DNA from: a candidate division WWE3 bacterium
GTDB taxonomy: Bacteria > Patescibacteriota > WWE3 > UBA101185 > UBA10185
Direction of reading: 5' to 3'
Length of the DNA: 64,000 nt
Assembly (NCBI GenBank): GCA_052035175.1
Contig: JBPOHV010000001.1
Coordinates: 366,773-430,772, forward strand
This document shows, piece after piece, positions 19,175 through 49,510 of this stretch (position 1 is the first letter of the stretch; each line of letters starts with the position of its first letter). The translations under genes were made by a program, and so were the position numbers. The notes under the pieces were generated by a model. The model made no database searches, had not been told where the DNA came from, and saw only the letters and a program-made list of their open reading frames with translations.

Positions 19175-19194
19175 GGGCTAAGCCCGGCTTAGCC
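19175..19194. repeat. GC-rich palindromic element GGGCTAAGCC-CGG-CTTAGCC
   Basis: Near-perfect 9-bp inverted repeat in AT-rich intergenic DNA. Member of a five-copy family. Confidence 0.7.
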
Positions 19195-19796: not shown

Positions 19797-19817
19797 AGGC
19801 TAAGCCGGGCCTAGCCC
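19797..19817. repeat. GC-rich palindromic element AGGCTAAGCC-GGG-CCTAGCCC
   Basis: Same family. Lies on the other side of the methyltransferase gene. Confidence 0.7.
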
Positions 19818-20122
19818 TTATACCGATACTTCTCGATATCAATATTAAAATCTTCATCTACGATTATACCTTCTTCAAGAAGTCTTTCTTTTTGGTCTAG
19901 TGCGTTATAGTGTGAACCTTTGATGCTTATGCGTCCGGAATTATTTATTATTCTCCACCAAGGTACTTCGGTTTTACCTTCTAGTTTGTTTAATATCCAC
20001 CCAACTTGGCGCGCAGCACGAGGTGAGTCTGCCAATAACGCAACTTGCCCATAGCTAGCGACTGTGCCAAAGGGAATTGAATTTACTATTTGAATTACTT
20101 TTTGTTTAAACGAAATCTGCAT
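19811..20122 (-). CDS. atl: Alkyltransferase-like protein (ATL; MGMT DNA-binding domain with Cys->Trp)
   Basis: 103 aa: SYGQVALLADSPRAARQVGWILN...VPWWRIINNSGRI. Corresponds to the PCHRV motif of O6-alkylguanine methyltransferases with Trp replacing the acceptor Cys, as in E. coli YbaZ/Atl (PWHRV). Confidence 0.75.
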   Translation of the reverse strand: MQISFKQKVIQIVNSIPFGTVASYGQVALLADSPRAARQVGWILNKLEGKTEVPWWRIINNSGRISIKGSHYNALDQKERLLEEGIIVDEDFNIDIEKYRYKG

Positions 20123-20184
20123 GATTAATTATATCCCACAACCGCAATACATTCGGGTTTTGTTTGTCTTGACTGTGGAACTCA

Positions 20185-31905: not shown

Positions 31906-32535
31906 TTAAGAATATCTTCTAACAACTCCAGTTACTTTACCTTGTACTTGTAAATTTTCAGCGTCTACATATATAGGTGCCATATTTTTGTTTGCGGGTT
32001 GCAACCTAATTTGACCATTTTTTTCTCTATAAAAAGTTTTGAGCGTAGCAAAGTTGTTATCGATCAAAGCTACTACTATATCGCCATCGTTGGCGGTTTC
32101 TTGTTGTTGTATAACAACATGATCTCCATCAAAGATACCCATATCAATCATGGAGTCACCTCTGACTTGTAACACATAACTTCTTCGATTTTTTGAAACC
32201 ATGTCGCTAGAGACCAAAACTGTTTCATATTGGTTTTCGTTTGCTTCAATAGGTTCTCCAGCTGCAATGAATCCCATTAGTGGAAGCTCTATCGAGTTAA
32301 GCGACGCGTTGTAAGACATGTCTGTAATTTCTATACCTCTTACAGCGCCATCATAGCGTTTGATAACGCCTTTCTTTTCTAAGGTTTGTAGGTGTTCGTG
32401 GACTGTAGCTAAGGAAGAAAGGCTCATAGCATCTGCGATTTCTCGAAGAGTAGGGGAGCTGTTGTTAACTTGTATATACTGAGAAATGTATTCTATTATT
32501 TGTTTTTGTTTTTTATATAAAGTTATAGGACTCAT
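31906..32535 (-). CDS. lexA: LexA repressor
   Basis: N-terminal wHTH (SPTLREIADAMSLSSLATVHEHLQTLEKKGVI) plus the S24 autopeptidase domain (Ser in VRGDSMIDMGIFDGD, Lys in ATLKTF). Confidence 0.9.
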   Translation of the reverse strand: MSPITLYKKQKQIIEYISQYIQVNNSSPTLREIADAMSLSSLATVHEHLQTLEKKGVIKRYDGAVRGIEITDMSYNASLNSIELPLMGFIAAGEPIEANENQYETVLVSSDMVSKNRRSYVLQVRGDSMIDMGIFDGDHVVIQQQETANDGDIVVALIDNNFATLKTFYREKNGQIRLQPANKNMAPIYVDAENLQVQGKVTGVVRRYS

Positions 32536-32573: not shown

Positions 32574-32588
32574 GGGGGAATTTTATAT

Positions 32589-32612
32589 AGGGCTAAGCCT
32601 GGTTAAACCCTA
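32589..32612. repeat. GC-rich palindromic element GGGCTAAGCC-TGG-TTAAACCC
   Basis: Same family as 19175 and 19797. Left boundary of the GC-rich cassette. Confidence 0.65.
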
Positions 32613-32687
32613 TATTAGTCTGATACAAATTGTACTATAATTGTACTATTTGGCTGTTTTGGCTTATAATTGCTTTAGCAATCTTCT

Positions 32688-32707
32688 GGGATGCGGAGGC
32701 GTCAAGG
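32688..32707. repeat. Left arm of 20-bp inverted repeat flanking the small secreted-protein ORF
   Basis: GGGATGCGGAGGCGTCAAGG. Its partner is CAAGGATGCCTCCGCATCCCC at 33058-33078 (18 of 20 complementary). Confidence 0.65.
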
Positions 32708-32722
32708 AAAAGGAGGTTTGAT

Positions 32723-33046
32723 ATGAAATTCATTAAGGGTGCAGTTTTTGCACTCTTTTTAATTCTCATAGCTGGGATGGCGGTGCAAGCCGCTGCCCAG
32801 CCTGCACGCGATAGCGTGCAAATCACACTCGCCAGCGGTGTCGCTGGTGAGATCACTGAAAAAACTGTGAGCTGCGGAAAAGTGCAGCTTACTTTTTTTT
32901 CAGACAATACACTTTTCGCCCCTGGAGTACGGGGCGAAAGAGGAAAGCTGATTTTCGAAGGGGGAATTGAACTTACGGTCACCGTCCAAAACTTGGACGG
33001 TGGTATAAAGTACACTGCGACCTCAGTCGGGTGTACTTTTAATTAA
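32723..33046 (+). CDS. Small secreted protein (signal peptide, two Cys), GC-rich cassette gene
   Basis: Strong RBS AAGGAGG 6 nt upstream of the ATG. Signal peptide MKFIKGAVFALFLILIAGMAVQAAAQ. The ORF is flanked by a 20-bp inverted repeat. Confidence 0.5.
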   Translation: MKFIKGAVFALFLILIAGMAVQAAAQPARDSVQITLASGVAGEITEKTVSCGKVQLTFFSDNTLFAPGVRGERGKLIFEGGIELTVTVQNLDGGIKYTATSVGCTFN

Positions 33047-33057
33047 GTTTCAAATCA

Positions 33058-33078
33058 CAAGGATGCCTCCGCATCCCC
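33058..33078. repeat. Right arm of the inverted repeat flanking the small secreted-protein ORF
   Basis: See 32688-32707. Confidence 0.65.
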
Positions 33079-33091
33079 CTTCGTACTAATA

Positions 33092-33111
33092 GGGTTTAAC
33101 CAGGTTTAACC
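33092..33111. repeat. GC-rich palindromic element GGGTTTAACC-AGG-TTTAACC (reverse orientation of 32589 copy)
   Basis: Near reverse-complement of 32591-32610. Confidence 0.6.
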
Positions 33112-33190
33112 TTTTAATCTTATTATCCAATTTATGCTAATCATTGCTACTAGCGTATGCTATTAGAAGTAAACATAGGTAGTTGTGCGA

Positions 33191-33213
33191 CAGGCTTAGC
33201 CTGGCCTAGCCCT
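33191..33213. repeat. GC-rich palindromic element AGGCTTAGCC-TGG-CCTAGCCC
   Basis: Same family. Right boundary, just upstream of uvrB. Confidence 0.65.
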
Positions 33214-33227
33214 TAGGTCATATGTTA

Positions 33228-33250
33228 GAATGTTCGGGATATGTTCGATA
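33228..33250 (+). promoter_or_regulatory. Candidate SOS operator at uvrB: GAATGTTCGGGATATGTTCGATA, overlapping -10 TAGAAT and the start codon
   Basis: TTCGGG core plus a second GTTCG half 11 bp downstream. TAGAAT at 33226-33231. Confidence 0.45.
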
Positions 33251-35316
33251 TTTTTTCATCTTATTCACCAACAGGAGATCAGCCAACGGCAATAGACCAG
33301 CTTACTAAAGGAGTACTTGGTGGTGTTAAAAACCAAACATTATTAGGAGTAACCGGTAGCGGTAAAACATTTACAATAGCAAACGTTATAAAAAATGTTT
33401 CAAAACCTACACTTATACTTTCACACAATAAAACTTTGGCTGCACAGCTTTATCAAGAGTTCAGAGAATTTTTTCCGAATAATGCAGTTGAATACTTTGT
33501 AAGCTATTATGACTATTATCAGCCAGAAAGTTATATCCCATCTACAGATACTTATATAGAAAAAGACGCAGATATAAACGACATGATTGATCGACTTAGG
33601 CTGTCTGCGACTACATCGTTGATGACGCGCAAAGACGTTATTGTAATTTCTTCAGTTTCTTGCATTTATAATCTTGGTTCACCTGCAGAATATTCAAAAA
33701 TGGCTATCGAAGTACGTAAAGGTATGAAGATACGTGCTGTCGATTTACTCAAAAGACTTTCACAAATATATTACGAACGTAATGAGTTTGAGTTTAAGCG
33801 CGGTACATATCGTGTGCGCGGTGATGTCATAGATATATTTCCAGCATATGTAGAGTATGCAGTGCGGTTGGAAATATTTGATGATATTTTGGTAAATGCT
33901 TCATTCTTTGATCCTTTGACTGGTGACGCGTTAAATACTGTAGGTGCTCCAAGTACAAGACAAGGCAGCCATACTCGGTCTGTTACTCAGGATGAAAAAG
34001 ATTATGCTCTGCATCGTTTGAATGAAAGTGGGCTTATTTTAATATATCCAGCCAAACACTATATTGCTGCAGAAGATAGGCGAGAATCGGCAATTGAACA
34101 AATTAAATCTGATTTAGCTTTACGCTTACAAGACTTGAAGCAGCAAGGAAGAAGCATCGAAGCTTATCGCCTTGAGCAAAGAACAAATTATGATTTGGAA
34201 ATGATGGAAGAAATAGGTTACTGCAAAGGCATTGAAAACTATTCTAGATATTTCGACGGACGAAACCCTGGTGATACACCTTATTCTTTGTTGGAGTTCT
34301 TTCCAAAAGATTATTTGTTAGTAATAGATGAGTCACATATAACTGTACCTCAAGTAAGAGGTATGTATAACGGTGATCGTTCGCGTAAGCAAACACTTAT
34401 AGATTATGGGTTTAGACTGCCATCGGCTTTGGATAACAGGCCACTAAACTTCACAGAATTTATGTCAAAGCTCAATCAAGCTATATATATAAGCGCGACT
34501 CCTTCAGAATGGGAGTTGAGTATGTCTGCAGGACATGTAGCTGAGCAATTGATTAGGCCAACAGGTATAGTTGACCCGGAAGTTACTATTTTGCCAACTC
34601 AAAATCAGATACACGATTTGTTAGATCGCATTAAAGCAAAAGTTGCAAATAATCAAAGAGTTTTGGTGACTACTTTGACTAAAAAAATGTCTGAAGAGTT
34701 GGCATCTTTTTTGACTGAAAAAGGTATTAAGGTTACTTATTTGCATTCTGATGTAGAAACTTTGGAACGGACAAATATTTTGGATGATTTGCGAAAAGGT
34801 GAGTATGACGTTTTGGTAGGCATAAACCTTTTGCGCGAAGGTTTGGATTTACCAGAAGTTTCTTTGGTAGCAATTTTGGATGCTGATAAAGAAGGCTTCT
34901 TGAGATCTGATACTTCCTTGATTCAAACTATGGGACGTGCGGCGCGCCACTTGCAAGGCGAAGTCGTGATGTATGCTGATAGTGTAACTGGCAGTATGCA
35001 GCGTGCGCTCGACGAAGTGGCGCGCCGCCGTGAAATCCAAAGAGCATACAACGAAAAACACCATATATCTCCAACTCAAATCTTCAAACCAATACGCCAA
35101 AAGTTAATCGATGAATATGTCGAGGAAATTGTTAATAAAGCTAAGAAATTTGAGACCGATGTAGATTATAAATCTATGCCACCAAAAGAAGTAAATAAAG
35201 AGGTAAAACGCATGGAAGCCGAAATGAAACTTGAAGCCGAGAATTTAAACTTTGAACGCGCAGCTGCTTTGCGAGATAAAATAAGAGAAATTAAAGGCTA
35301 TTTATCCAAGCAATAG
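33241..35316 (+). CDS. uvrB: Excinuclease ABC subunit B
   Basis: N-terminus SPTGDQPTAIDQL, Walker A GVTGSGKT, helicase motifs, C-terminal UVR domain (AENLNFERAAALRDKI). Confidence 0.95.
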   Translation: MFDIFSSYSPTGDQPTAIDQLTKGVLGGVKNQTLLGVTGSGKTFTIANVIKNVSKPTLILSHNKTLAAQLYQEFREFFPNNAVEYFVSYYDYYQPESYIPSTDTYIEKDADINDMIDRLRLSATTSLMTRKDVIVISSVSCIYNLGSPAEYSKMAIEVRKGMKIRAVDLLKRLSQIYYERNEFEFKRGTYRVRGDVIDIFPAYVEYAVRLEIFDDILVNASFFDPLTGDALNTVGAPSTRQGSHTRSVTQDEKDYALHRLNESGLILIYPAKHYIAAEDRRESAIEQIKSDLALRLQDLKQQGRSIEAYRLEQRTNYDLEMMEEIGYCKGIENYSRYFDGRNPGDTPYSLLEFFPKDYLLVIDESHITVPQVRGMYNGDRSRKQTLIDYGFRLPSALDNRPLNFTEFMSKLNQAIYISATPSEWELSMSAGHVAEQLIRPTGIVDPEVTILPTQNQIHDLLDRIKAKVANNQRVLVTTLTKKMSEELASFLTEKGIKVTYLHSDVETLERTNILDDLRKGEYDVLVGINLLREGLDLPEVSLVAILDADKEGFLRSDTSLIQTMGRAARHLQGEVVMYADSVTGSMQRALDEVARRREIQRAYNEKHHISPTQIFKPIRQKLIDEYVEEIVNKAKKFETDVDYKSMPPKEVNKEVKRMEAEMKLEAENLNFERAAALRDKIREIKGYLSKQ

Positions 35317-35337: not shown

Positions 35338-36741
35338 ATGCCTAACCACACAAAGTATGGTGATCTTTTTGGAGATAGTATGCCGGCAGAGGCGCATAGA
35401 CCTGCCAGATATTATTTTGCGCATGGTCAGCCGGTAGAGCGTTGGGAGGCTGAGCTGTTGGTTACTCCAGAAGTTCTAGATATTACGCAGAAGTTAGCTG
35501 GTGATGGCTCTGCAGTTTTAGCTGGAGGTACTGGCTTATATGCTACCTATGGCGGAAATATTCATAAAAGAGATTACGATATTACAGTTGCTGATTTACC
35601 TTTAACTGCCAACTCCACATTAGCATCATTAGGTTATGCGTATGTTTCTGGTGATTATGCTCAGCGATACAAAAAGGGGAATGTAACAATAGATATATTA
35701 AGTGCTAAACGTGTAGCTGATGCTAGTATACATGAGTTAACTAGCTTAAAATCCCAGTTACTTCAATTATCACTGCCAGGGGATGTAATGTCTAAAGCAC
35801 TTGAGCAAATTGTACGTTCAGAAAAGCTGTTGCTATCCAATGTGCTCGAATATCAAATGCGTGCGAATTGTTTTTTCAATATCGAGTTATTGGGGTATGG
35901 AGTTGATAATGCAGGGGCTATTTCTGTATTTGATGCAGGGCACATCCTTCAGGATCCAAATGAGATACACAGCTTGGATCATGCTTATAAAGCTGGCACG
36001 TTGCCGCATGCTCCTAGATACACCGTAAATACGTATTCAACGCGTAATACATTCACACAATTAATTACTGCTACAGCTGGTTCTGAACACCCACTAATGT
36101 TCACCTCAGATATGATTATGTGGTACCTAGAGAATTATGGTAGAAGCATGAGTAAATGTGCAAAAAATGATGCATCTCTTCCTTACAGTCAGTCGGCGTA
36201 TATCGACTATACTACTATTATAGATCTTGTTTTAAAAGGTGACGCACCATTTAAAGTTTCTAAGGATCTTTTAGATAAATTGCAAACTCGAGGTTTTTCA
36301 TCTTTAGAGAGTTTTGTACGTGCAAATATATGTCGCCATTTTGTGCAAGCTTTTATTTATAACCCAGAAAAGGCTATAGAGTTTTTATTTACTGAAGGGG
36401 ATATTGTTGCACCAGCACTTATGCCTAGTGTAGCATTAGGTGAAGGTGATCATAGAAGGACTACACGTGTAAGCATGTTGAGTTTGGCGGAAAAGGCCTT
36501 TCCTAAAAAGAAAGTTTGGGCGAGAGTTCCTGAATTTAGCTCCTCGCATCATCTTCAAACTGAAAAGTATGTACACTTACCGCAAAGTGTAGAACAGGCA
36601 CTGGCATTTTTATTGGTTGGGTTAAATGCAGGTGATTCTGTTGATGAGCTTTTAGCTTATTGGGCATCGATTGAAGGATTTAAAATGAATATAGATAAAA
36701 CTGAAATTGAAAAAGCTATGGTAGCTTTTAAAAAGTTATAA
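35338..36741 (+). CDS. hypothetical protein, possible nucleotidyltransferase-fold domain
   Basis: Segment LAGGTGLYATYGGNIHKRDYDITVAD fits the minimal pol-beta NTase pattern [GS]-x(9-13)-DhDhhh. The remaining ~380 aa have no recognisable motif. Locally GC-richer. Confidence 0.45.
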   Translation: MPNHTKYGDLFGDSMPAEAHRPARYYFAHGQPVERWEAELLVTPEVLDITQKLAGDGSAVLAGGTGLYATYGGNIHKRDYDITVADLPLTANSTLASLGYAYVSGDYAQRYKKGNVTIDILSAKRVADASIHELTSLKSQLLQLSLPGDVMSKALEQIVRSEKLLLSNVLEYQMRANCFFNIELLGYGVDNAGAISVFDAGHILQDPNEIHSLDHAYKAGTLPHAPRYTVNTYSTRNTFTQLITATAGSEHPLMFTSDMIMWYLENYGRSMSKCAKNDASLPYSQSAYIDYTTIIDLVLKGDAPFKVSKDLLDKLQTRGFSSLESFVRANICRHFVQAFIYNPEKAIEFLFTEGDIVAPALMPSVALGEGDHRRTTRVSMLSLAEKAFPKKKVWARVPEFSSSHHLQTEKYVHLPQSVEQALAFLLVGLNAGDSVDELLAYWASIEGFKMNIDKTEIEKAMVAFKKL

Positions 36742-36743: not shown

Positions 36744-37982
36744 ATGAAGCCTGTAGTATCTAATGCTTTACTCGAGCGTTTTTCTACTATGCTTATCGAT
36801 CAGGCTAGAGATTTGGATACCAGTATCACAACTTTTCGTGGTAGTTGGGTAACCTCTATTTTGATGTATTTAGCCAGAGAGCGCCGACATACGTATCTTA
36901 AGAATGCACAGGTAATTTTGCCTATCAGTGTTAAAAGCTTATATACAGATAAGAATGCAACGTTTGGTAATACATATAATTATTACAAAGAATTCTATAA
37001 AAATTTGACTATATCAACTCACACTGACTTAGAGAGTTTAATTTATGCACTTACGCATGGCGCTGATTACAAAGTTACGATATTGGCTAACGGGTTTGGT
37101 ACTCTTTTACAAACTAACAACACACATTTCAGTGCAGCAATCGCTTTAAGAGAGTTGAAAAAAATAAATCCTAAAAATGTGAGCTTTATCTTTGTTAATA
37201 CTGTAGAAATTTATCCTACCGATATACAACAAATCCCTGGATTGATGTCTAGCTTCTTACAAAACATGCGTTGGCAGCAAGACTTTGTTATTGATAAGGA
37301 AAGTGTAGCTAATATTTTATGTAATGAAACAGGTAAGCGAGAGTATGAAGAGAACGATTTATTAATATCAAAAGTATTTGAATACGCATATAATGATCCT
37401 TCTGTAGTGCAAATCATAGGAAAAAATCTATTAATTGACGCAGACTTTGAGAGGCAACTTTTGTCTGCTGGTAGCATTGCTGACCTATATGAAGTGATAG
37501 GTAAAGATAAGCTTGATTCACGTTATCGCCAGATTTTGAGCAGCCTAAAAAAAGAATCAAGGCAAAGTTTGCAGTATTATCTTGAATCTGACAATTCTGC
37601 GCATTTACCGACGATTTACTTGTTAAAAACAAATTTACTTGTTAGGAGTCATGATAGCTATAAGGCAATGAACCCTCTTTTTGATCACTATTTAAAGTCT
37701 GTAGACTTTCACTCAGCAGACATTTATGAATCAAGCGTTGATAAGCTAACGCGTGCATTAACTGGTCAAGAGCAGCAACTCTTTAATCTGTTACAAGTTA
37801 AACATGGCAAATTTGCTACCAAAGACGAAATCGCTCAAACTATTTGGGGAGATACTTGGCAAGATGTGTATAGTGACTGGGCAATTGATAAGCTTGTCTC
37901 TACACTACGCAAAAAACTTGTAGACAATAATTATGAAAAGACAATAAAAGCAGTGAGAAACAAAGGTATTATGTTAGTTTGA
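36744..37982 (+). CDS. hypothetical protein with C-terminal OmpR/PhoB-type winged-helix DNA-binding domain
   Basis: C-terminus LTGQEQQLFNLL...TKDEIAQTIWGD...LVSTLRKKL...KAVRNKGIMLV matches the Trans_reg_C pattern. The N-terminal ~320 aa are unknown. Confidence 0.5.
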   Translation: MKPVVSNALLERFSTMLIDQARDLDTSITTFRGSWVTSILMYLARERRHTYLKNAQVILPISVKSLYTDKNATFGNTYNYYKEFYKNLTISTHTDLESLIYALTHGADYKVTILANGFGTLLQTNNTHFSAAIALRELKKINPKNVSFIFVNTVEIYPTDIQQIPGLMSSFLQNMRWQQDFVIDKESVANILCNETGKREYEENDLLISKVFEYAYNDPSVVQIIGKNLLIDADFERQLLSAGSIADLYEVIGKDKLDSRYRQILSSLKKESRQSLQYYLESDNSAHLPTIYLLKTNLLVRSHDSYKAMNPLFDHYLKSVDFHSADIYESSVDKLTRALTGQEQQLFNLLQVKHGKFATKDEIAQTIWGDTWQDVYSDWAIDKLVSTLRKKLVDNNYEKTIKAVRNKGIMLV

Positions 37983-38167: not shown

Positions 38168-38467
38168 ATGAAAACCGGCTGGTTTTTTGCAATAATCTTC
38201 GCAGTAGTGGCTTTAATCATAGCGACACATCTAGCTTATCAACAGCCATATCTGCAAACCCTGGATCTTTATCCGGGGTCTCACGTCAAATTAAATAATG
38301 TGGATTTTTTCATGGATGAAGAAACTGGTTTTTCTGCTTCGGCTTCATGCTTGGGATCTCTGAAGCTTTATGGTGACCAGAAAGATCATTATGGATTTAC
38401 GTGTAACAACATCGACTTTGATGTTGTGTACAGCGAATCTGTAACAAAGATTTCTTGGGCTCCCTAG
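38168..38467 (+). CDS. small membrane-anchored protein (island gene 1)
   Basis: RBS AAAGGAG 7 nt upstream of the ATG. N-terminal TM WFFAIIFAVVALIIATHLAY. 99 aa. Confidence 0.4.
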   Translation: MKTGWFFAIIFAVVALIIATHLAYQQPYLQTLDLYPGSHVKLNNVDFFMDEETGFSASASCLGSLKLYGDQKDHYGFTCNNIDFDVVYSESVTKISWAP

Positions 38468-38473
38468 GAAAAG

Positions 38474-38542
38474 AGCGGGTTTGGACTCGTAGATACAGAT
38501 TAGCTTTGGCTAGTTTTTGTTTACGGTCCGACCCGCTTTTTT
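38474..38542 (+). terminator. Long-loop rho-independent terminator
   Basis: AGCGGGT...(inner GGAC..GTCC stem)...ACCCGC followed by TTTTTT. Confidence 0.5.
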
Positions 38543-38778
38543 AGTTGTGTTAGTAAGCATTTTTCTACTCAGTTTTACTCAAGCCGATATAACCTATAGC
38601 TCGTATCATATCTTCATACAATTGAATAGAACTTTGACATCCAAATACTTTTCACTAGAACTCTAGAAGGAGGCTTTTTAGGCTTAACTGCGCTGTCGAG
38701 CTTATAAAGCCTTCTTTTATGAGAAGGTTCCCCAATGTGGGGAAATGCTAATAATCGCCGCAGTTGTGGCCAAGTCAA

Positions 38779-39076
38779 GGAGCTTGATATGTCTCGAATC
38801 AATGAACTTTTCACAAATCCAGTTGTAACCTTTTTGTGGTTTTTAATCCCGACCGGGGTACTCTGGTTCTTTGGGGTTGTGGCCCTTGGTATGGGTAGCA
38901 GTCTTGGAGATCTCTTGTTCGGAGCTGTCTTTGGCGGCGCCGTAACTGCATTCTTTTTTACAGTGTCTATGGAGGCGAAAAGTCGTGGGGAGCCCGGTTG
39001 GTTTTACACCTTCTTGATCTTTGGGCTCATTTCCATTGCAATTCCCATCACTGCTTTCATTAAAGCAGCTTATTAG
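38779..39076 (+). CDS. small 3-TM membrane protein (island gene 2)
   Basis: RBS AAGGAG 7 nt upstream of ATG 38779. Hydrophobic throughout. Preceded by the hairpin TTCCCCAATGTGGGGAA. Confidence 0.45.
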
Positions 39077-39085
39077 GCTGTACCT

Positions 39086-39148
39086 AGGTGGGCGAGGTGC
39101 TCATGGATAAAGATCTTAAGATCTCACACCATGGCACCTCGCTCACTA
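39086..39148 (+). repeat. Structured hairpin repeat, copy 1 (GGTGGGCGAGGTGC...GCACCTCGCTCAC)
   Basis: Imperfect stem of about 17 bp with a roughly 22-nt loop containing the GATCTTAAGATC palindrome. Homologous to 39999-40059, with compensatory substitutions between the copies. Confidence 0.7.
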
Positions 39149-39264
39149 AATCAATTACTAGAAAAAAGTTTGTACTAGATTTCAAAAAATGAAAGTTAGT
39201 ATGAGCTTTCTTCTGGAAAAATCTAGATGAAAGGTATTATGTTGCGTTGAGTAAGGAGTTAGTA

Positions 39265-39972
39265 ATGTCTCAGAAAATCTTGTCTTTTGGTCTCGCCCTG
39301 TTCGTGGCCTTTATGGCCGCTTGCAGCGGAGGTGGAGAACCGCAGTCTAGTGTAGTAGTAACTGCATATGATTGCAAAGGCGATGTCTTGGATCTCCAAA
39401 ATCGAGACCAGTTTATCCTAAACGGTCAAGAAGTTTTATTTGCGGATCAAGGATTCGCAAATTATCAATTTCTTGACACAGACTGGAACCAGCTCGCTGC
39501 TGGTCCAGATAAAGTTCCGTCAGATTCAATTCATTTAGATGATGAAAAAGTCTCGTTGGCCGGATCTGACTGGAAAATCACAAACATAGGTACCACTGTA
39601 GAGGGGAAAAGCAGAATATGCTTTGAGGAATGGAACGTGAATTACATTCCTCCAACAGTGACGCCAACGCCAACCCCGGTTGGGGAAATTGGTCTGGCGC
39701 TAACCCCAACTCCAGCTTATTCCTGTCCCCAAGGCGAATTCAACTATGTTGAAATCGAAGCTGGGAATCCCCATTACTCTTCTCTTGATGGTGATACCAC
39801 TGTGGTTATCGAAAAAAATACAAGTGGTTTTTCCATTGAGGTGGTCGGAGAGTTTTACGTCAGTGGAGACGTAAGTATTGGTTATGGAGAAGAAGCCATA
39901 ATTGGCGATTACCGATTCCACATCATTCGTGGTTATGAGGACGCATTATGTGTCCTTGTGACTCCTCCTTAA
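39265..39972 (+). CDS. Putative lipoprotein (island gene 3)
   Basis: RBS AAGGAGTTAGTA then ATG. Signal plus lipobox-like FVAFMAAC|SGG. Pro/Thr linker PPTVTPTPTPVGEIGLALTPTP. Confidence 0.5.
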   Translation: MSQKILSFGLALFVAFMAACSGGGEPQSSVVVTAYDCKGDVLDLQNRDQFILNGQEVLFADQGFANYQFLDTDWNQLAAGPDKVPSDSIHLDDEKVSLAGSDWKITNIGTTVEGKSRICFEEWNVNYIPPTVTPTPTPVGEIGLALTPTPAYSCPQGEFNYVEIEAGNPHYSSLDGDTTVVIEKNTSGFSIEVVGEFYVSGDVSIGYGEEAIIGDYRFHIIRGYEDALCVLVTPP

Positions 39973-39998
39973 CCTAAGGAGTAAAACTAAGGAAATCA

Positions 39999-40059
39999 AG
40001 GTGGGCGAGATGCTCGTGAAGAAGATCGCATGATCAGATATCACGGCATCCGCCCACTA
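39999..40059 (+). repeat. Structured hairpin repeat, copy 2 (GGTGGGCGAGATGC...GCATCCGCCCAC)
   Basis: Same architecture as 39086-39148. The GGTGC/GCACC to GATGC/GCATC and CATGG/CCATG to CGTG/CACG changes keep the pairing intact. Confidence 0.7.
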
Positions 40060-40153
40060 AACCAAGAAGAAAGTTTCTATCAGCCTTTGGATCTCTGAAA
40101 GCAAAGATTGGTAGAAGCCTTCTGCTAAGAAGGTAAACCACAAGGAGGCAGTA

Positions 40154-40603
40154 ATGTTTTTTGTAGCGATATTGCGTAAGTTTTGGTGGATCTTGCCTGT
40201 GGCAATGGTGATTATGTTAATCGCTATGGCTATGGGAGTAGGAGATCCCGCTCCGGTTTTACCAGAGACAGAAACACCCGCCAATGAAGTTAGTGCATTA
40301 TGTACTGATTTCTTCGGCTGGTCCGTTGTGGATAGTACTGACTTTGTCAGCGCTGAATATGTGAATGGCGACATTTACGTAGAGTGGACCAATAGTGGTC
40401 CGAATCCACGCATTATGGGGGTGAACTTTTATGGCTGGATCGTCAAAGATCCACAGCCTGGTGTACATCTGGAAATTCCTCAGGGTATTCTGCTCCTCAG
40501 TGACGATGGACAAATATTGTCCATCTTACCTACAGGGCAGGATCCAGTGGTGATTGAAATAGGCACAACCTGCCTGCAAAAGCCACTGCCTACCAGAGGA
40601 TAA
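40154..40603 (+). CDS. small exported protein (island gene 4)
   Basis: RBS AAGGAGG 5 nt upstream of the ATG. N-terminal TM/signal WWILPVAMVIMLIAMAMG. 149 aa. Confidence 0.45.
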   Translation: MFFVAILRKFWWILPVAMVIMLIAMAMGVGDPAPVLPETETPANEVSALCTDFFGWSVVDSTDFVSAEYVNGDIYVEWTNSGPNPRIMGVNFYGWIVKDPQPGVHLEIPQGILLLSDDGQILSILPTGQDPVVIEIGTTCLQKPLPTRG

Positions 40604-40606
40604 ATT

Positions 40607-40671
40607 GAGCGGTAGATCGCTGTAGATAGTCCAAATCAGGACGCAATCTCTACGCGATCTACCGCTTTTTC
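40607..40671 (+). terminator. Rho-independent terminator with large structured loop
   Basis: GAGCGGTAGATCGC...GCGATCTACCGC followed by TTTTTC. Perfect 13-bp stem. Confidence 0.65.
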
Positions 40672-40786
40672 AGTTTTATACTAATGACTCATCAAATGAT
40701 ACTAGTTCTGCTTAACTCAGTTTCACTCATGCCCTCATACCTCATAGTGCTAGTATGCCGCTATTAATCTGATTAAAGGAGATGCC

Positions 40787-40990
40787 ATGTTAGTACTAAC
40801 TAAGAATACCGAACTTACCTTGTTTGGTATAAAAATTACGTTTGTAAATAACAGTTTGGATTTTTCAGCTGCATCCGAACTGGATGTTTTGTATGTCCCA
40901 GATTCCAATCCAAGAATTGTAAATGTTTGTTATCGGAATCGATCAATTTTTGTTGTGCAGCTACACGACATGCTTATTATTTCATGGTAG
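40787..40990 (+). CDS. small hypothetical protein (island gene 5, 67 aa)
   Basis: RBS AAAGGAG 5 nt upstream of the ATG. No TM helix. Confidence 0.3.
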   Translation: MLVLTKNTELTLFGIKITFVNNSLDFSAASELDVLYVPDSNPRIVNVCYRNRSIFVVQLHDMLIISW

Positions 40991-41048
40991 TTACCTTCAA
41001 TACCCAACAGTTTGGCATAAAGACCAAACTACAAATAAGGAGAATCTG

Positions 41049-41303
41049 ATGAAACGCTTTATGAAAAACCCGTTGATAACCTGGCTCGTACTTCTTGTTT
41101 TACTAACACCATTTTGGTGGTTAGCAAATGGAGGGGGCCGTGAGATAGATCTACCGCTAGCTCTGTCGGGGGTTAATGCATACATATTAATGTATGCATT
41201 GATTACTCGTGAAAAGGGTGACGCGCTCTTTTTGTCATTAGTCTATGCCGTTGCAGGACTTGTGATGCTAGGGTTTTCTTGTTATCTGATTATTATAGGG
41301 TAG
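41049..41303 (+). CDS. small 2-3 TM membrane protein (island gene 6)
   Basis: RBS AAGGAG 6 nt upstream of ATG 41049. Begins MKRFMKNPLITWLVLLVLLTPFWW. Confidence 0.4.
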   Translation: MKRFMKNPLITWLVLLVLLTPFWWLANGGGREIDLPLALSGVNAYILMYALITREKGDALFLSLVYAVAGLVMLGFSCYLIIIG

Positions 41304-41310
41304 AAAGAAA

Positions 41311-41373
41311 AAGGCGGTAGGTTTGCTGAGTACATTAATCAATGATTGATGCGCTCGCGATCTACCGCTTTTT
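41311..41373. terminator. Bidirectional rho-independent terminator sharing its 3' arm with the 40607-40671 terminator
   Basis: GAAAAAGGCGGTAG...GCGATCTACCGC followed by TTTTTC. Sits between convergent genes. The 18-nt 3' arm is identical to the 40654-40671 arm. Confidence 0.6.
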
Positions 41374-41379
41374 CTTTTC

Positions 41380-42783
41380 TTATTTATAGTAATCGTTTAA
41401 TTGACTATATGGCACTATCTTCATATCTGGGTTTTGTGTTAGCAAGTCTTTTTGTAACTGCAGATCTAACGTATCATCTCTGAATATCACAGCTTTTATA
41501 TCTTTACTAGAAACATGCATATTTCTTGGTTGTTTCGTATAACCTTTACTTGGATGCAACACGCCTTCTACGTATACACCATTGCCCTTCATTGCGCCTG
41601 CTTCAGGCGTTCCTGGTAAATATGTATAGCTCATGTGTTTTTCTATTTCAAATACTTCTCGGAATGCATGTACCATTCTTGCATCAACAAGTGAAAGCAT
41701 TTTGATTAAAGTTCCATCTGCAAATTCATGTCGTCCTATTGGTTCTCCTCGATCACCATATGTATATTCAACTCTTAAGGCTAGTGCTTCGTTGAAATGA
41801 ACAAAGATAGGTCTTTTTTTGCCCCATTCGTAGCGCTCGCCAGTTTTTTTTGAAATAAGTGCCCCGTACAATACAGAGTAAGGTTCGTTATTAACGGTTG
41901 CTTCTAATTGGGCTGGTGCGGTTGCATTCGAAAAAATAATAGTGTCGTATATTTCTAGTATCTGTTGTTCTAGTTCGTCTACTTGCATTGTGTCTATTAA
42001 TTCCGCTGCTTGAGAGTCCACTATCTCAATAGGTGAATCGCCAAGAGTGTGTTTTAATAATTCAATTGCTTCCCTCTGTTCGTTGGAATCAGCAATATTG
42101 TTGTATATTGTTTCTACCGCTTTTTCTATTTCGAGTTTTATTTTGTTTTGTATTTTTTCGCGTGTTAAAAACTTGCCAACTTTTTCAATAACTGCTATAG
42201 CCGCATTTTCACTTGTTTGCTTATTAATAGCAGTAGTTATGTTTTTTTCTGTAAATAGTGGTTCTTCTTGTATATTCTCAACTAGATGTATAAACTGAAT
42301 AACGGTTTGATTAGGCGCAGAAAAGTTTTCTAAGAAAAGTTCGTTTTTAGCCTCATCACAATCAACATCAGCGATGTTTACGCCTTTAACCTGTATTTGT
42401 ACACCACTCTCAGACTTAACCAGGCTATATTCATCTGGTAATCTTTTTTTTAATATTTCGATATCAGTATTTAATTTGGCAAATAGTATGGAGTGATCGC
42501 TTGCATTTGTTTTAAAAGAAATAGACATGAGTTCATTATCAGGAGTTTCCATTCTTATACTAGGTCCTGCTCCTAGTGTATCGATATATACTTTACACGC
42601 TTTAACCAAAGTGTCTGCGTGTGCAGTTTCATCTTCTATTACTTGTGTAAAATTCGCATACCTAGCAATTTTTTTGGTGTATGTTTCTAATAGTTCCAAC
42701 TTTAAATTTTCTTGGCTTGTTTGAACCTCATCAGCAGTGTTTTCAATATGAACTTCTTTTTCACTGGTTATATCATCAAGCAT
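41380..42783 (-). CDS. hypothetical protein (467 aa, acidic N-terminal half)
   Basis: Long ORF with no recognisable catalytic motif. Co-directional with the upstream 94-aa gene and separated from it by 8 bp. Confidence 0.5.
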   Translation of the reverse strand: MLDDITSEKEVHIENTADEVQTSQENLKLELLETYTKKIARYANFTQVIEDETAHADTLVKACKVYIDTLGAGPSIRMETPDNELMSISFKTNASDHSILFAKLNTDIEILKKRLPDEYSLVKSESGVQIQVKGVNIADVDCDEAKNELFLENFSAPNQTVIQFIHLVENIQEEPLFTEKNITTAINKQTSENAAIAVIEKVGKFLTREKIQNKIKLEIEKAVETIYNNIADSNEQREAIELLKHTLGDSPIEIVDSQAAELIDTMQVDELEQQILEIYDTIIFSNATAPAQLEATVNNEPYSVLYGALISKKTGERYEWGKKRPIFVHFNEALALRVEYTYGDRGEPIGRHEFADGTLIKMLSLVDARMVHAFREVFEIEKHMSYTYLPGTPEAGAMKGNGVYVEGVLHPSKGYTKQPRNMHVSSKDIKAVIFRDDTLDLQLQKDLLTQNPDMKIVPYSQLNDYYK

Positions 42784-42790
42784 GTAAGGT

Positions 42791-43075
42791 TTATGCTTCT
42801 CCTTGTACTAGTTTTCTCCAGTCAGTTTTTGATGGAGCAGCCGTTGGGGTTGCTTGTTTTTCATCTTTAGTGGGCTCTTCTGTTAAACCTTCAAGTTTTA
42901 TGTCAGCTGCTTCTGCTGTTTCGGCTTGGACTTCTGGTGTTCCTTGACGCATCATAGCTGCTATTCTGTTCATCGTTTTTGAGGTAATTATCGTTTCTGG
43001 TTGTTTTTCATTTGGTGTTTCATTTGTACCTGTAACTTCCGAAAGTCTTTCTAATGGCATATATTTTCCTTTCAA
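42791..43075 (-). CDS. small acidic hypothetical protein (94 aa)
   Basis: First gene of the putative two-gene operon. Low-complexity Glu/Thr/Ala/Pro-rich sequence. Confidence 0.4.
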   Translation of the reverse strand: MKGKYMPLERLSEVTGTNETPNEKQPETIITSKTMNRIAAMMRQGTPEVQAETAEAADIKLEGLTEEPTKDEKQATPTAAPSKTDWRKLVQGEA

Positions 43076-43135
43076 TTTAATATATGTAAATATGATATTC
43101 TATTTTGGTGACTTCTTCTATGAGTGAAACTGACT

Positions 43136-43155
43136 TCACAAACCCGAACATATAC
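43136..43155. promoter_or_regulatory. Candidate SOS operator (CCCGAACATAT / ATATGTTCGGGTTTG) in the uvrA divergent intergenic region
   Basis: Same ATGTTCGGGTT core as lexA and uvrB. About 65 bp upstream of the minus-strand 94-aa gene and about 120 bp upstream of uvrA. Confidence 0.4.
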
Positions 43156-43266
43156 CGTATACTGTTTTGGTCACATTTATTGCGGCAGCATTCTTTTCGT
43201 CACTAAGTCCTCGCTTTGCTGCGGAATGGTTCCTCAATAATGTTGCCGCTAATAAATTTAACTAAT

Positions 43267-46200
43267 ATGAACAAACCAAACAATTCAGCCTTAACACATA
43301 TAATCGTCAAAGGTGCTCGCCAGCACAATTTGAAAAATATCGACCTAGAAATTCCAAAAAATAAAATGGTCATATTCACAGGAGTTTCTGGTAGTGGTAA
43401 GTCATCTATGGCAATGGATACTATTTATGCAGAAGGTCAAAGACGTTATGTAGAAAGTTTGAGTTCATACGCACGCCAATTCTTGGGAGTTATGGATAAG
43501 CCCGACGTCGATAGTATCGAAGGTTTATCCCCAGCAATTGCGATCGATCAAAAAACTACTTCAAAAAACCCTCGCTCTACAGTAGGCACTATTACAGAAG
43601 TTTATGATTTCATGCGTTTACTTTATGCAAGAGTGGGGCATCCGCATTGTCCAAATTGCGGACGCGAAGTCCAACGACAGTCGTCTGAAGAAATTGTAAA
43701 TCAAATATTTTCATTAGCTGAAAGTGATACAAATTTTAAATCTGAGCGTGGTTCGCGTTTTATTATTTATTCACCTATAGTTAGAGATCGAAAAGGTGAG
43801 TTTTCTTCGCTTTTTGATAATTTAAAAAAGCAAGGCGTAGTGCGTGCGCGCATTGATGGCAAAGTTTATGAACTCTCTGAGCAACTTACTTTAATTAAAA
43901 CAAATAAACATACTATAGACGCATTTTTATCAAGACATATTATAAGCAAAAAAAGACTGGCAGACGATGAAAAGAATATACGTTCTACTATCTTTCAAAG
44001 TATCGAAACTGCTTTACGCATGAGTAACGGCCTGGCGTTGGTTTCGTTTATCAAAGATAAAGACTTTGATTTTTCTGAAAATCCCAAAGAAGTCGAAGAT
44101 CACTTATTTTCAGAAAACTTTGCTTGTCCATTTTGCAATATATCTTTGCCAGATATAGAACCACGAAGTTTTTCTTTTAATTCTCCTCATGGTGCATGCG
44201 CCGAGTGCGATGGTTTGGGCACAAAGTTGGTTATAGATGAATCCACAGTTTTAAATAAATCTTTAACAATTAAAGAAGGCGCAATATTACCTTGGAATAA
44301 ATTGTTTGAGCACAATTCGTGGACGCAACTTGTTATTGACGCAGTCGCAAAAGAGCACAATATACCTTTGAATATCGAAGTTTCCAAAATGACAAAAGAA
44401 CATATGGATATTGTTTTGTATGGTACTGGTGATGTGAAGCATAAGATCAATTACACAAACAAAGAAGGTGACATGCACAATTTTAATGCTAGATATGAAG
44501 GAGTTATTCCAAATTTATTACGCAGACACAAAGAAACTCAATCTGACTATGTACGAAACGAAATTGAAAAGTATATGGTTTTGTATCCGTGCAGTGTGTG
44601 TAACGGTGACAGACTAAATAAGCATGCGCTTTCTGTAGTTATAGATTCACAAAATATTGCGCAGATCTCGAATTTATCAATAGAACACGCCGTCACTTGG
44701 TTTAATGAAATTACCACAAAGTTTAATTTACGCGAGCAAACTATAGCCGAGCCCATAATGAAAGAAATTAATTACCGTATGAAGTTTTTGCTAGACGTTG
44801 GTCTGGGATATTTAACTTTGAGTAGAGCTTCTAGCCATTTATCTGGTGGAGAAGCTCAACGCATACGGTTAGCTTCGCAAATTGGTTCTGGTTTATCTGG
44901 TGTTTTATATGTTTTAGACGAGCCATCTATTGGACTACATCAAAGAGATCAGGGCAAGCTGATCAAAACTTTGCACCATTTAAGAGATTTGGGAAATACT
45001 GTTTTGGTAGTAGAACACGATGAAGAAACAATGTTACAAAGTGATTATATTTTTGATTTTGGTCCAGGCGCGGGTGAACATGGTGGAAAAGTTATTGCCG
45101 AGGGTACGCCAGCACAACTGATGAAAGATGCAAATTCACTGACTGGAAAGTATTTATCAAGGCGCTTGGTCGTGGGTCAAACTGATGTAATATCAAAGAA
45201 AAAAAGTAAAAAGAAATTTGAATTTGATGATGGTTTTATAGACGCAGAAATTTCTGTAAAAGATGTAAAAGGAAGATCACTATCTATCATTGGGGCTTCA
45301 GGTCGTAACTTAAAAAATATTGATGTAGAGATTCCATTAGGAAAGCTCGTTTGTGTAACAGGTGTATCTGGAAGCGGTAAGTCTACATTGATTATGGATA
45401 CATTACATAGAGCTTTGCGCCAAAGATTTGCTTTAAAAAATGAAGAGCGACCAGAGCCATTTAGAGATATGACAGGGTTGGAACATATCGATAAAGTAAT
45501 CGCAATTGATCAAACGCCAATTGGTCGTACACCAAAATCTAATCCAGCAACTTATACAAAAGTATTTGATTTGATACGCGAGTTATTTGCACAAACTCAA
45601 GACTCTAAAATCCGTGGTTACAAAGCAGGACGATTTAGTTTTAATGTAAAAGGTGGTAGGTGTGAAGCTTGCAGTGGTGAAGGCCAAGTCAAAATTGAAA
45701 TGCAATTTATGCCAGATGTTTATATTAATTGCGAAGTATGTGAAGGCAAAAGATATAACAAAGAAGCTTTGGAAATACATTTTAGAGGCAAAAATATCGC
45801 AGATGTTTTGGATATGACTATTGAAGAGGCATTAGAGTTTTTTGCAAATCATGAAAATATTAGAAGAAAAATACAAGTGTTATACGATGTAGGTTTGAGT
45901 TATATAAGACTTGGTCAACCAGCTCCAACGTTATCTGGAGGAGAAGCTCAAAGAGTTAAGTTAGCTTTAGAGTTGGCAAAAAGATCTTTTGGTTCGACTT
46001 TGTACATTTTGGATGAACCTACTACCGGTCTACATTTTGCTGATCTCGAAAATTTGATAACTATTATGAAAATATTGACTCGTCGCGGTAATACTGTGTT
46101 AGTTATAGAACATAATTTGGATATAATCGCCAATAGCGATTGGATTATCGATCTCGGTCCCGAAGGCGGAGATAAAGGTGGTGAACTAGTTTTTTCAGGT

Positions 46201-46284
46201 GACTTAAAAGCATTGCTAAGTTGTAAATACTCACATACAGCAACAGCCCTACGAGAAATACAACAAAAACCTTTGACGCAATAA
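43267..46284 (+). CDS. uvrA: Excinuclease ABC subunit A
   Basis: Two ABC ATPase modules (GVSGSGKSS and GVSGSGKSTL), zinc-finger Cys clusters (CPNCGRE, CPFCN, CEACSGEG, CEVCEGKRYN), C-terminal SHTATALREI. Start set at ATG 43267. Confidence 0.95.
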   Translation: MNKPNNSALTHIIVKGARQHNLKNIDLEIPKNKMVIFTGVSGSGKSSMAMDTIYAEGQRRYVESLSSYARQFLGVMDKPDVDSIEGLSPAIAIDQKTTSKNPRSTVGTITEVYDFMRLLYARVGHPHCPNCGREVQRQSSEEIVNQIFSLAESDTNFKSERGSRFIIYSPIVRDRKGEFSSLFDNLKKQGVVRARIDGKVYELSEQLTLIKTNKHTIDAFLSRHIISKKRLADDEKNIRSTIFQSIETALRMSNGLALVSFIKDKDFDFSENPKEVEDHLFSENFACPFCNISLPDIEPRSFSFNSPHGACAECDGLGTKLVIDESTVLNKSLTIKEGAILPWNKLFEHNSWTQLVIDAVAKEHNIPLNIEVSKMTKEHMDIVLYGTGDVKHKINYTNKEGDMHNFNARYEGVIPNLLRRHKETQSDYVRNEIEKYMVLYPCSVCNGDRLNKHALSVVIDSQNIAQISNLSIEHAVTWFNEITTKFNLREQTIAEPIMKEINYRMKFLLDVGLGYLTLSRASSHLSGGEAQRIRLASQIGSGLSGVLYVLDEPSIGLHQRDQGKLIKTLHHLRDLGNTVLVVEHDEETMLQSDYIFDFGPGAGEHGGKVIAEGTPAQLMKDANSLTGKYLSRRLVVGQTDVISKKKSKKKFEFDDGFIDAEISVKDVKGRSLSIIGASGRNLKNIDVEIPLGKLVCVTGVSGSGKSTLIMDTLHRALRQRFALKNEERPEPFRDMTGLEHIDKVIAIDQTPIGRTPKSNPATYTKVFDLIRELFAQTQDSKIRGYKAGRFSFNVKGGRCEACSGEGQVKIEMQFMPDVYINCEVCEGKRYNKEALEIHFRGKNIADVLDMTIEEALEFFANHENIRRKIQVLYDVGLSYIRLGQPAPTLSGGEAQRVKLALELAKRSFGSTLYILDEPTTGLHFADLENLITIMKILTRRGNTVLVIEHNLDIIANSDWIIDLGPEGGDKGGELVFSGDLKALLSCKYSHTATALREIQQKPLTQ

Positions 46285-48121: not shown

Positions 48122-49510
48122 ATGAAGCTAAAGCTTGCTATAGGATTCGAAAATATAAAAGACCAAATTCCGCATAACCCTGGCGTATATAGATATTATG
48201 ATGCTTCTGATCAAATAATTTATATTGGTAAAGCCAAGAATTTACGTCATAGAGTAGGAAGCTACTTTTCTACTAAGCTTATGTCTGGTAGTAAAACGCA
48301 AGCTTTGGTATCGAATATCGCTAGCATGGACTTCATTATCACAGCTTCTGAGTTTGAAGCCATTATCTTAGAAGCTCAACTTATTCGAGATATCATGCCA
48401 AAATACAATATAACTCTCAAAGACGACAAAACGAATTTATATCTTGTAATTAGGAAAGAAAGTTTTGATATAAGTGGAAAAAAGGTTAATGTTCCAAAAG
48501 TGTTATTGGTACGTAAAACTTTGATTTTGCCAACAGACATTGTGTTTGGCCCATATACAAATTCTGATACTGCCAGACTCATATACAAGTCGACACGCAA
48601 AATCTTTGGTTTCCGTGATTGTAATACACTCAAGTTTAATAGGTACAAAAGACTAAAGCGACCATGTTTATATGGTTATATTGGGATGTGTCTTGCACCA
48701 TGTACAAAAAATGACAACGCATCTTTGCAAACATATACAACATCAATCTCAAAGGTAAAAAAACTACTTTCGTCCGGTGCAAAGCCTATAATCAATTCTT
48801 TGAGATCTGCTATGTTGGCTAGCTCAAAAAACCATGATTATGAAGAGGCAGCACAAATTCGAGATACGTTAAAAAAGCTAGAAAGTATTATTGTTGATTT
48901 TAAAACACCTGATAGATATATTGAAAATCCACATTTGACAGAAGATATTGCAGATAAAGCTTTGTCAGAACTTGTTAGAGTTTTACCAAATTTAGATAAA
49001 TTACCACAGCGTATAGAATGTTATGACATAGCGAATATTTCTGGTAAAGAGGCGGTTGGGGCAATGGTAACAGCAATAAATGGAGTAGTTGATAAACGTG
49101 AGTATAAGAGATTTAGAATAAAACTAAAAAACACTCCAGATGATTTTGCTATGATGCGTGAGGTAATAACGCGTAGACTTAAGCACGAATTAACAGACTC
49201 CAAATTAATTGCATGGGGCAGACCGGATTTGTTAGTAATAGATGGTGGAAAAGGTCAAGTTTCTGCCGCCTTAGAGGTACTAGCAACGTTAAATTATTTT
49301 GTACCTGTTGTAGGATTGGCCAAAAAGTTTGAGACACTGGTATATAAAGATCTTGTAACGAATGAATTTGTCGAGATAAAGGTAGCAGAAGCAAACTATG
49401 GTTTATCTTTGCTTATCAGGTTGCGTGATGAAGCACATAGGTTTGGGCAAGCTTACCACCATAAACTACGCTTAAGAAATATTACTAACAAAAAATTCAA
49501 AAGCACATAA
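48122..49510 (+). CDS. uvrC: Excinuclease ABC subunit C (short form)
   Basis: GIY-YIG module PGVYRYYDASDQIIYIGKAKNLRHRV, UVR domain (EEAAQIRDTLKKLE), RNase H-like endonuclease region. 462 aa, apparently lacking the C-terminal (HhH)2. Confidence 0.8.
   Translation: MKLKLAIGFENIKDQIPHNPGVYRYYDASDQIIYIGKAKNLRHRVGSYFSTKLMSGSKTQALVSNIASMDFIITASEFEAIILEAQLIRDIMPKYNITLKDDKTNLYLVIRKESFDISGKKVNVPKVLLVRKTLILPTDIVFGPYTNSDTARLIYKSTRKIFGFRDCNTLKFNRYKRLKRPCLYGYIGMCLAPCTKNDNASLQTYTTSISKVKKLLSSGAKPIINSLRSAMLASSKNHDYEEAAQIRDTLKKLESIIVDFKTPDRYIENPHLTEDIADKALSELVRVLPNLDKLPQRIECYDIANISGKEAVGAMVTAINGVVDKREYKRFRIKLKNTPDDFAMMREVITRRLKHELTDSKLIAWGRPDLLVIDGGKGQVSAALEVLATLNYFVPVVGLAKKFETLVYKDLVTNEFVEIKVAEANYGLSLLIRLRDEAHRFGQAYHHKLRLRNITNKKFKST

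Follow-up and report, generated by a model that had tools for sequence, protein, structure and literature searches.

The stretch of DNA analysed here (the window) is 64,000 nt long and comes from a candidate division WWE3 bacterium. Between the repair genes uvrB and uvrA, on the strand opposite to uvrA, it carries two genes for acidic proteins, here called T89 and T467. The features of this region are:

31906..32535, minus strand: LexA
33241..35316, plus strand: UvrB
41302..41380, both strands: bidirectional intrinsic terminator hairpin (79 nt, -29.5 kcal/mol, z = -6.4 against shuffles)
41380..42783, minus strand: T467, a 467-aa acidic ORF (pI 4.9), soluble, conserved only over residues ~295-467
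42791..43060, minus strand: T89, an 89-aa acidic ORF (pI 4.7), rich in E, T, A, P and K and predicted to be disordered
43067..43070, minus strand: Shine-Dalgarno-like AGGA, 6 nt 5' of the T89 ATG, as read from the sequence
43102..43097, minus strand: TAGAAT, best candidate -10 of the T89-T467 operon, proposed from sequence, with no good -35
43132..43151, minus strand: LexA-type operator GTTCGGgtttgTGAAG, with a good first half-site and, in place of the second, the complement of the uvrA -35
43143..43151, minus strand: element ATGTTCGGG
43135..43163, plus strand: uvrA promoter, with -35 TTCACA (43135-43140), a 17-nt spacer and -10 TATACT (43158-43163); 10/12 matches
43267..46284, plus strand: uvrA (NCBIfam UvrA equivalog, 1389 bits)
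48122-49510: UvrC

T89 and T467 form a genuine operon that is unique to this lineage. The original prediction had recognised the arrangement, a small minus-strand ORF followed by one of 467 aa, with a spacing of 8 nt; the sequence gives 7 nt from the T89 stop codon to the T467 ATG. Because this gap is so short and T467 has no well-placed ribosome-binding site, the two genes are probably translationally coupled. The small ORF had been read as a 94-aa acidic protein (42791-43075), the version that results from an upstream TTG at 43075. An acidic ORF does exist here, but its start has to be corrected to the ATG at 43060, which is preceded by the AGGA and is also where public gene calls begin the ORF in this very sequence (89 aa).

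The codon usage of both genes is native-like, and their in-frame coding scores are like those of uvrA and uvrB. For T467, simple arithmetic indicates that an open frame of 467 codons is not due to chance, the stop codon frequency in sequence of 36% GC being ~0.07 per codon. A length of 89 codons is not significant by itself, and many chance ORFs of ~90 codons are found in the window. Although length is uninformative in its case, T89 is a genuine gene, because none of the window's 55 spurious ORFs with 70-130 codons reaches its in-frame coding score of 0.43 (the highest has 0.26); the GC content of its three codon positions is also periodic (0.54/0.47/0.20).

At the 3' end of the operon, the proposed bidirectional terminator is borne out. 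The hairpin has an A-run before it and a U-run after it, and should therefore be able to terminate not only T89-T467, whose transcription would stop here, but also the convergent plus-strand ORF that ends at 41303 and has this terminator in common with the operon. The 3' arm of the hairpin recurs as an exact repeat at 40653-40671. A search of Rfam over positions 40500-43600 gave nothing credible.

At the 5' end the picture is less sharp. No full promoter that would fit the T89 ATG emerged from a consensus scan. The operon, which would be transcribed divergently from uvrA, probably has a weak promoter of its own within 43061-43133, with TAGAAT as its -10. A weak alternative, GTGACC-16-TATGTT at 43174-43147, has 8/12 matches and falls below the threshold of the scan. 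The sequence TCAGTTTCACTCAT, considered as a regulatory element upstream of both T89 and a 67-aa ORF (40787), is no more than a lead, as such a match is within chance for a region of this size.

T467 has a net charge of -26 and a GC3 of 0.25, and its N-terminus, judged by eye from the translation, has no hydrophobic stretch that would hint at a signal peptide or membrane segment. The protein is extremely rare. It matches itself alone among 5.8 billion clusters, and has just two relatives, both distant, among ~15 billion proteins; these emerged when 1.84 billion representatives were searched exhaustively with phmmer. One (P0002) is 458 aa long and 27% identical to T467 over residues 162-466 (E 1e-14), the other (P0003) is 479 aa long (E 1e-4), and all three proteins are singleton clusters. 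No further members were added by a word-indexed search with T467, the three-sequence profile and P0002, by profile-guided scans of the JGI metagenomes and IMG/VR, by tblastn against phages and plasmids, or by a profile search of all ORFs of 164 loci.

The alignment of the three sequences shows T467 to be intact, with no loss of length compared with its homologs. The N-terminal two-thirds are variable, whereas the C-terminal part is conserved and contains the invariant residues Y306, A308, L309, G315, E316, Y318, H329, A335, R337, G343, D344, G402, E406 and G407. Since invariant E, H, R, D and E residues are found within it, we infer from this alignment that the C-terminal domain of ~170 aa is a functional, possibly enzymatic, module. 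AlphaFold2 models of T467 were unusable, with a mean pLDDT of 34 whether a single sequence or the three-sequence alignment was supplied.

The statement that the 467-aa protein has no recognisable domain holds. Neither T467 nor T89 has a significant match in Pfam, NCBIfam, PHROGs, PADLOC or the sequences of the PDB (phmmer), and no homology to a housekeeping family emerged from these searches. The best matches below significance were DUF2095 (E 0.061, below its cut-off), phrog_10946 (E 0.012, function unknown) and a PDB sequence (E 0.35). The three-sequence profile had zero matches among PDB sequences, and no family could be assigned to the C-terminal domain alone in Pfam at E <= 10. T89 has no Pfam match even at E <= 0.1; its GRAVY is -0.89, and the charge-hydropathy boundary places it with disordered proteins. 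The window contains another 467-aa ORF, located after uvrB, but it and T467 are not paralogs (BLASTP E > 7).

The genomic setting of the operon is a conserved repair cluster with a variable interior. In all 41 related loci in which both gene ends are visible, uvrB and uvrA are neighbours on the same strand, and the gap between them varies between -18 nt, an 18-nt overlap, and 5135 nt (5.1 kb). At one extreme are two loci (L007, gap 14 nt; L013, 18-nt overlap) that carry no cargo. Another (L005, gap 2.6 kb) has a gene for a class A PBP, and L085, loci of the L086 type and L094 (3.1-5.1 kb) contain a class A PBP and different orphans. The window has the largest gap, 7.9 kb, filled by nine ORFs including T89 and T467; these have no homologs in any of 85 related loci, and the window contains no ortholog of the PBP. 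The acidic orphans of the relatives' slots were considered as remote homologs of T467, T89 and the other 467-aa ORF, and were rejected (phmmer; hhalign probabilities <= 0.2%). As the cargo differs between relatives and the gaps are variable, T89-T467 is one item of lineage-specific cargo in a slot of high turnover.

A GC-rich island next to the operon had also been predicted, and this stands: the segment from 38.0 to 41.3 kb has a GC content of 41-43% versus ~35%, and its five small membrane or lipoprotein-like ORFs (38168-41303) look foreign, with a GC3 of 0.39-0.47. Unlike these adjoining ORFs, T467 and T89 (GC3 0.25 and 0.20) have no atypical composition that would be a sign of recent acquisition. 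Their native codon usage suggests long residence, or an origin within the lineage.

The original prediction had placed the operon under an SOS-like operator, with a TTCGGG candidate at 43143-43151. As a LexA-type half-site this candidate is genuine. The exact sequence ATRTTCGGG occurs three times in the 64 kb, only at the promoters of lexA, uvrB and uvrA. TTCGGG alone had to be rejected as a definition of the operator, since it is not enriched (10 found versus 12 expected). The site at the lexA promoter is a direct repeat, ATTCGGgttacTTTCGG, as is that at the uvrB promoter, GTTCGGgatatGTTCGA. Relatives have the same element in the same places: the lexA site of L085 is TTGACAcATTCGGgtactATTCGGtact, and the uvrB site of the relatives is GTTTGGgttttGTTTGG, just 5' of the -10. 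Both here and in the relatives, the lexA and uvrB sites are thus direct repeats of the form RTTYGG-N5-RTTYGK with a period of 11 bp.

A weight matrix was built solely from the lexA-promoter sites of the relatives. Its four best sites in the window are:

lexA promoter: score 20.0
uvrB promoter: score 19.7
20149-20168: score 17.9, 26 nt 5' of an ATL/MGMT-like gene that is divergent from mraZ
43132-43151, between uvrA and T89: score 15.2 (best null scores: mean 14.6, maximum 17.8)

By this measure the element at 43132-43151 is a real LexA-type site, in the form of a half-site only and with a borderline score. Two genes of unknown function directly downstream of uvrB are probably SOS-controlled.

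A LexA motif for the SOS network of Patescibacteria was reportedly described by Sanchez-Osuna et al. in 2017 (Environ Microbiol 19:3465). Direct-repeat LexA boxes are found in Alphaproteobacteria, where the box is GTTC-N7-GTTC (PMC8565304). The lexA and uvrB sites described here have an equal 11-bp period and the same TTC core as these boxes, but the host belongs to the Patescibacteria and the half-site is extended by GG.

Although the element is close to T89, its position and history tie it to uvrA. It had been put ~65 bp upstream of the 94-aa ORF; the exact distance is 68 nt for the TTG start and 83 nt for the ATG of T89. The true start of uvrA is most likely the ATG at 43267 and not the TTG at 43216, because the NCBIfam alignment of UvrA begins at residue 27 of the TTG-started ORF, and, in the ATG-started protein, alignment with the UvrA proteins of relatives sets in at residue 6-7. 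The uvrA promoter encloses the LexA-type operator, which lies over its -35 and spacer, where a repressor site is classically found. Measured from T89, the operator box is 71 nt from the ATG and ~30 nt upstream of the best -10. With TAGAAT as this -10, the operator would span about -42 to -61, not one of the classic positions for repression.

The comparison with relatives points the same way. Six closer relatives without the operon (L085-L088, L102 and L094; UvrA 65-69% identical) have kept CTTCACAAACCCGAAC-N4-ACCGTA, and in them the operator is preserved to the base. Their uvrA promoter reads CTTCACAAACCCGAAC-tttt-ACCGTAaAAT, that of the window CTTCACAAACCCGAAC-atat-ACCGTATACT. The CCCGAA/TTCGGG core is also present at the uvrA promoters of three more loci (L005, L011 and L006). 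In the six relatives, T89 and T467 are absent and the upstream neighbour of uvrA is a co-directional gene for a class A PBP or an orphan, so that the site there can serve only uvrA. Similarity between the window and these relatives ends at the uvrA -35 (window ~43134), and the T89 side of the intergenic region is therefore lineage-specific. We conclude from promoter position and from this comparison that the operator belongs to uvrA, ancestrally as well as positionally. In spirit, the comparative evidence favours an operator that acts on uvrA only, and the proposed control of the operon by this site is not supported: the box is part of the core promoter of uvrA, and it is conserved where there is no operon.

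The T467 family provides a further argument. P0002 is surrounded by cupin, DUF4256, glyoxalase and PAS genes, and P0003 by sugar-phosphate enzymes and unknowns; neither locus contains uvrA or a small same-strand ORF upstream, and upstream of neither gene is there a convincing LexA-type box (best matrix score 9.6). The 85 related loci contain no orthologs, and the box is conserved together with uvrA instead. The damage-inducible function that had been deduced from operator and placement is thus left largely unsupported, the operator being assigned to the uvrA promoter.

Taken together, these data are best accommodated, in our view with somewhat better than even confidence, by a real and coupled operon that is promoted independently or constitutively, in which the C-terminus of T467 is functional and T89 accessory, and next to which the LexA half-site regulates uvrA. 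A recombinationally variable slot would have arisen within what was ancestrally a lexA / uvrB-uvrA-(transglutaminase)-uvrC repair cluster in this Patescibacteria lineage. The insertion seems to have ended directly at the uvrA -35, which would explain why the operator is so close to the operon. The element at 43132-43151 would be the ancestral uvrA operator, where LexA bound over the -35 and spacer would block RNA polymerase at uvrA. T467 is predicted to be a cytoplasmic acidic protein; its N-terminal two-thirds would be variable, coiled-coil and helical, and its C-terminus would form a conserved alpha/beta domain of ~170 aa. T89, as part of this whole reading and at the same level of confidence, would be an accessory peptide, disordered and acidic, with which the family can dispense.

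Some observations do not fit this reading so easily. If the alternative promoter GTGACC-16-TATGTT were used, the operator would lie over its -10, oriented as at uvrB. Only ~5 nt lie between the edge of the box and the -35 expected for the TAGAAT promoter, and steric co-repression of back-to-back promoters is therefore possible. In addition, the native composition means that the genes may be long-term residents that have been selected at this site. Incidental SOS co-regulation of the operon promoter is accordingly possible, albeit rather unlikely; strong SOS control of T89-T467 is probably absent.

True membership of the SOS regulon, with LexA at 43132-43151 repressing both divergent promoters and the operon encoding a damage-induced repair modulator or stress effector, is likewise rather unlikely. 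It draws on a real LexA-type element that has the same orientation relative to T89 as at lexA and uvrB, on the location of the operon in a lexA-uvrB-uvrA-uvrC cluster, on its native codon usage, and on the conceivable TATGTT -10 overlapping the box. Against this, the box belongs to the core promoter of uvrA and has been kept by relatives without the operon, is a borderline half-site, and would lie at about -42 to -61 from the best T89 promoter; the loci of the two homologs have neither uvrA nor a box. The ATL-like gene and mraZ are another divergent pair with a box in common, and a common intergenic region alone does not imply regulon membership.

Two known SOS systems help to place the arrangement. 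The divergent uvrA and ssb genes of E. coli have one SOS box between them. The locus described here is alike in that a LexA-type box lies over the uvrA core promoter and the divergent neighbour uses the same intergenic region. It differs in that the neighbour is an orphan pair and not ssb, that lexA and uvrB of this genome bear stronger boxes than uvrA, and that the box is of the direct-repeat type, present as a half-site only and, judging from the relatives, older than the neighbour. DinI (81 aa) is a small acidic modulator that is SOS-induced. T89 is likewise small, acidic and near a LexA box, but has no Pfam match, is predicted to be disordered and has no orthologs.

A bolder version of the SOS interpretation would make T89-T467 a LexA-co-regulated, damage-inducible module of one Patescibacteria lineage, in which the T467 C-terminus has a new fold, either enzymatic or for DNA transactions, that works together with nucleotide excision repair. 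The uvrB-uvrA slot would then be a place where acidic proteins that evolve fast are taken up time and again for the SOS response (T467, T89, the 467-aa ORF after uvrB, and the 326-aa and ~247-aa orphans of relatives). We regard this as improbable.

A toxin-antitoxin or anti-phage defence-like module, carried as slot cargo and made up of a small acidic neutraliser and a large effector, is equally doubtful. The type II pair HipB (88 aa) and HipA (440 aa) is an example of a toxin-antitoxin system with a large toxin, and T89-T467 is similar to it in gene order and sizes, a small ORF being followed 7 nt on by a protein of ~450 aa. The high cargo turnover of the slot, the adjoining segment of foreign composition and the extremely patchy distribution of the T467 family would suit such a module as well. 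T89 and T467, however, contain no HipA, HipB or other toxin or antitoxin domain, and T89 lacks a helix-turn-helix or any other recognisable DNA-binding domain. Neither protein has a match in PADLOC, PHROGs, Pfam or NCBIfam, or in collections of phages and plasmids; the presumed toxin, T467, is strongly acidic too, and the codon usage of the pair is native and not foreign. The homologs of T467 stand alone with no small partner, a misfit for an obligate toxin that needs neutralising.

That T89 is a translated leader or a spurious ORF and T467 the sole real gene, even possibly a decaying remnant, is very improbable: T89 is low in complexity, predicted to be disordered, without homologs and missing from P0002 and P0003, and ORFs of its size do arise by chance, but its coding score and GC periodicity, the AGGA before its ATG and the tight spacing to T467 all argue for a gene, and T467 is full length.

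Under the preferred reading, of a coupled operon promoted independently of the uvrA operator, T89-T467 is a lineage-restricted hypothetical operon of a kind that is abundant in CPR genomes and forms part of their "dark matter". Were the operon induced by DNA damage, T467 would found a new family of repair-associated proteins, but current evidence gives no such indication. The locus is an example of an operator common to divergent genes that needs to be assigned by comparison before a regulon is extended. It also documents for this clade a direct-repeat LexA box, RTTYGG-N5-RTTYGK, that controls a small regulon of lexA, uvrB, an ATL-like gene and, by way of a conserved half-site, uvrA, and it identifies the junction of uvrB and uvrA as a hot spot of cargo turnover.

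Two uncharacterized genes lie downstream of uvrB:

35338-36741, plus strand: a second 467-aa orphan, 21 nt after uvrB
36744-37982, plus strand: a 412-aa protein, 2 nt after the second 467-aa orphan

No terminator was detected for the gene run from uvrB through these two ORFs, and both are probably co-transcribed with uvrB from the LexA-controlled uvrB promoter. Because of this probable co-transcription, they are better candidates for damage-inducible genes of uncharacterized function than the operon originally singled out, which consists of T89 (an 89-aa acidic ORF) and T467 (a 467-aa ORF). Codon usage is native in both genes, and the 412-aa protein has an OmpR/PhoB-type winged-helix domain (Trans_reg_C) at its C-terminal end.

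A GC-richer segment (38168-41303; 41-43% GC, GC3 0.39-0.47) contains five small ORFs, each with a hydrophobic N-terminal segment; one of them (39247-39972) has a lipoprotein-like LAAC motif. No homologs of these ORFs were found among 85 related loci. Two short strings recur in or near the segment:

40653-40671 and 41356-41374: 19-nt exact repeat, CGCGATCTACCGCTTTTTC
43120-43133 (minus strand) and 40717-40730 (plus strand): identical 14-nt string, TCAGTTTCACTCAT

The 19-nt repeat forms the 3' arm in each of two terminator-like hairpins: one follows a 149-aa ORF, and T467 shares the other as its terminator. Between the two copies of the repeat lie the ORFs at 40787-41303, and this stretch may have been inserted or duplicated later. 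Both T89 and the 67-aa ORF at 40787 have the 14-nt string 57-60 nt ahead of their start codons; statistically the two-copy match is at chance level, and the equal spacing is curious. On the T89 side, the string and the complement of the uvrA -35 element together give GTGAA-N6-TTCAC.

On the uvrA side, the transcript leader contains a hairpin with an 18-bp stem (-28 kcal/mol, z = -3.2):

43164-43266: uvrA leader, hairpin stem 43175-43192 / 43239-43257

Relatives have no such leader, their uvrA ATG lying ~12 nt past the -10. The hairpin has the look of a palindromic element that was inserted, or else of a regulatory leader specific to this lineage. At its 3' end, uvrA overlaps a convergent transglutaminase-like gene by ~140 nt in the window (46145-46284) and by ~92 nt in the related locus L005 (12855-12946); this arrangement is conserved between the two.

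Repeats also surround lexA, uvrB and the ATL/MGMT-like gene:

19176-19194, 19798-19809, 32591-32602 and 33193-33204: palindromic repeat containing GGCTWAGCC
32586-32613 / 33089-33116: 28-nt inverted repeat
32688-32703 / 33062-33077: 16-nt inverted repeat

The palindromic repeat occurs five times in the window versus 0.26 expected, and every copy is intergenic and close to one of these three genes. Between lexA and uvrB, the two inverted repeats flank an orphan ORF that is GC-rich (32630-33046), and this arrangement points to a small inserted element.

A further LexA-type site was found at the ATL/MGMT-like gene:

20149-20168: strong LexA-type direct-repeat box, score 17.9
19811-20122, minus strand: ATL/MGMT-like gene, 103 aa, PF01035
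20246-20656, plus strand: mraZ, divergent from the ATL/MGMT-like gene

The active-site PCHR of the encoded protein is replaced by PWWR, and mraZ and the dcw cluster lie on the other side of the box. The position of this strong box, 26 nt upstream of the gene, suggests that an alkyltransferase-like protein is under SOS control in this CPR genome.
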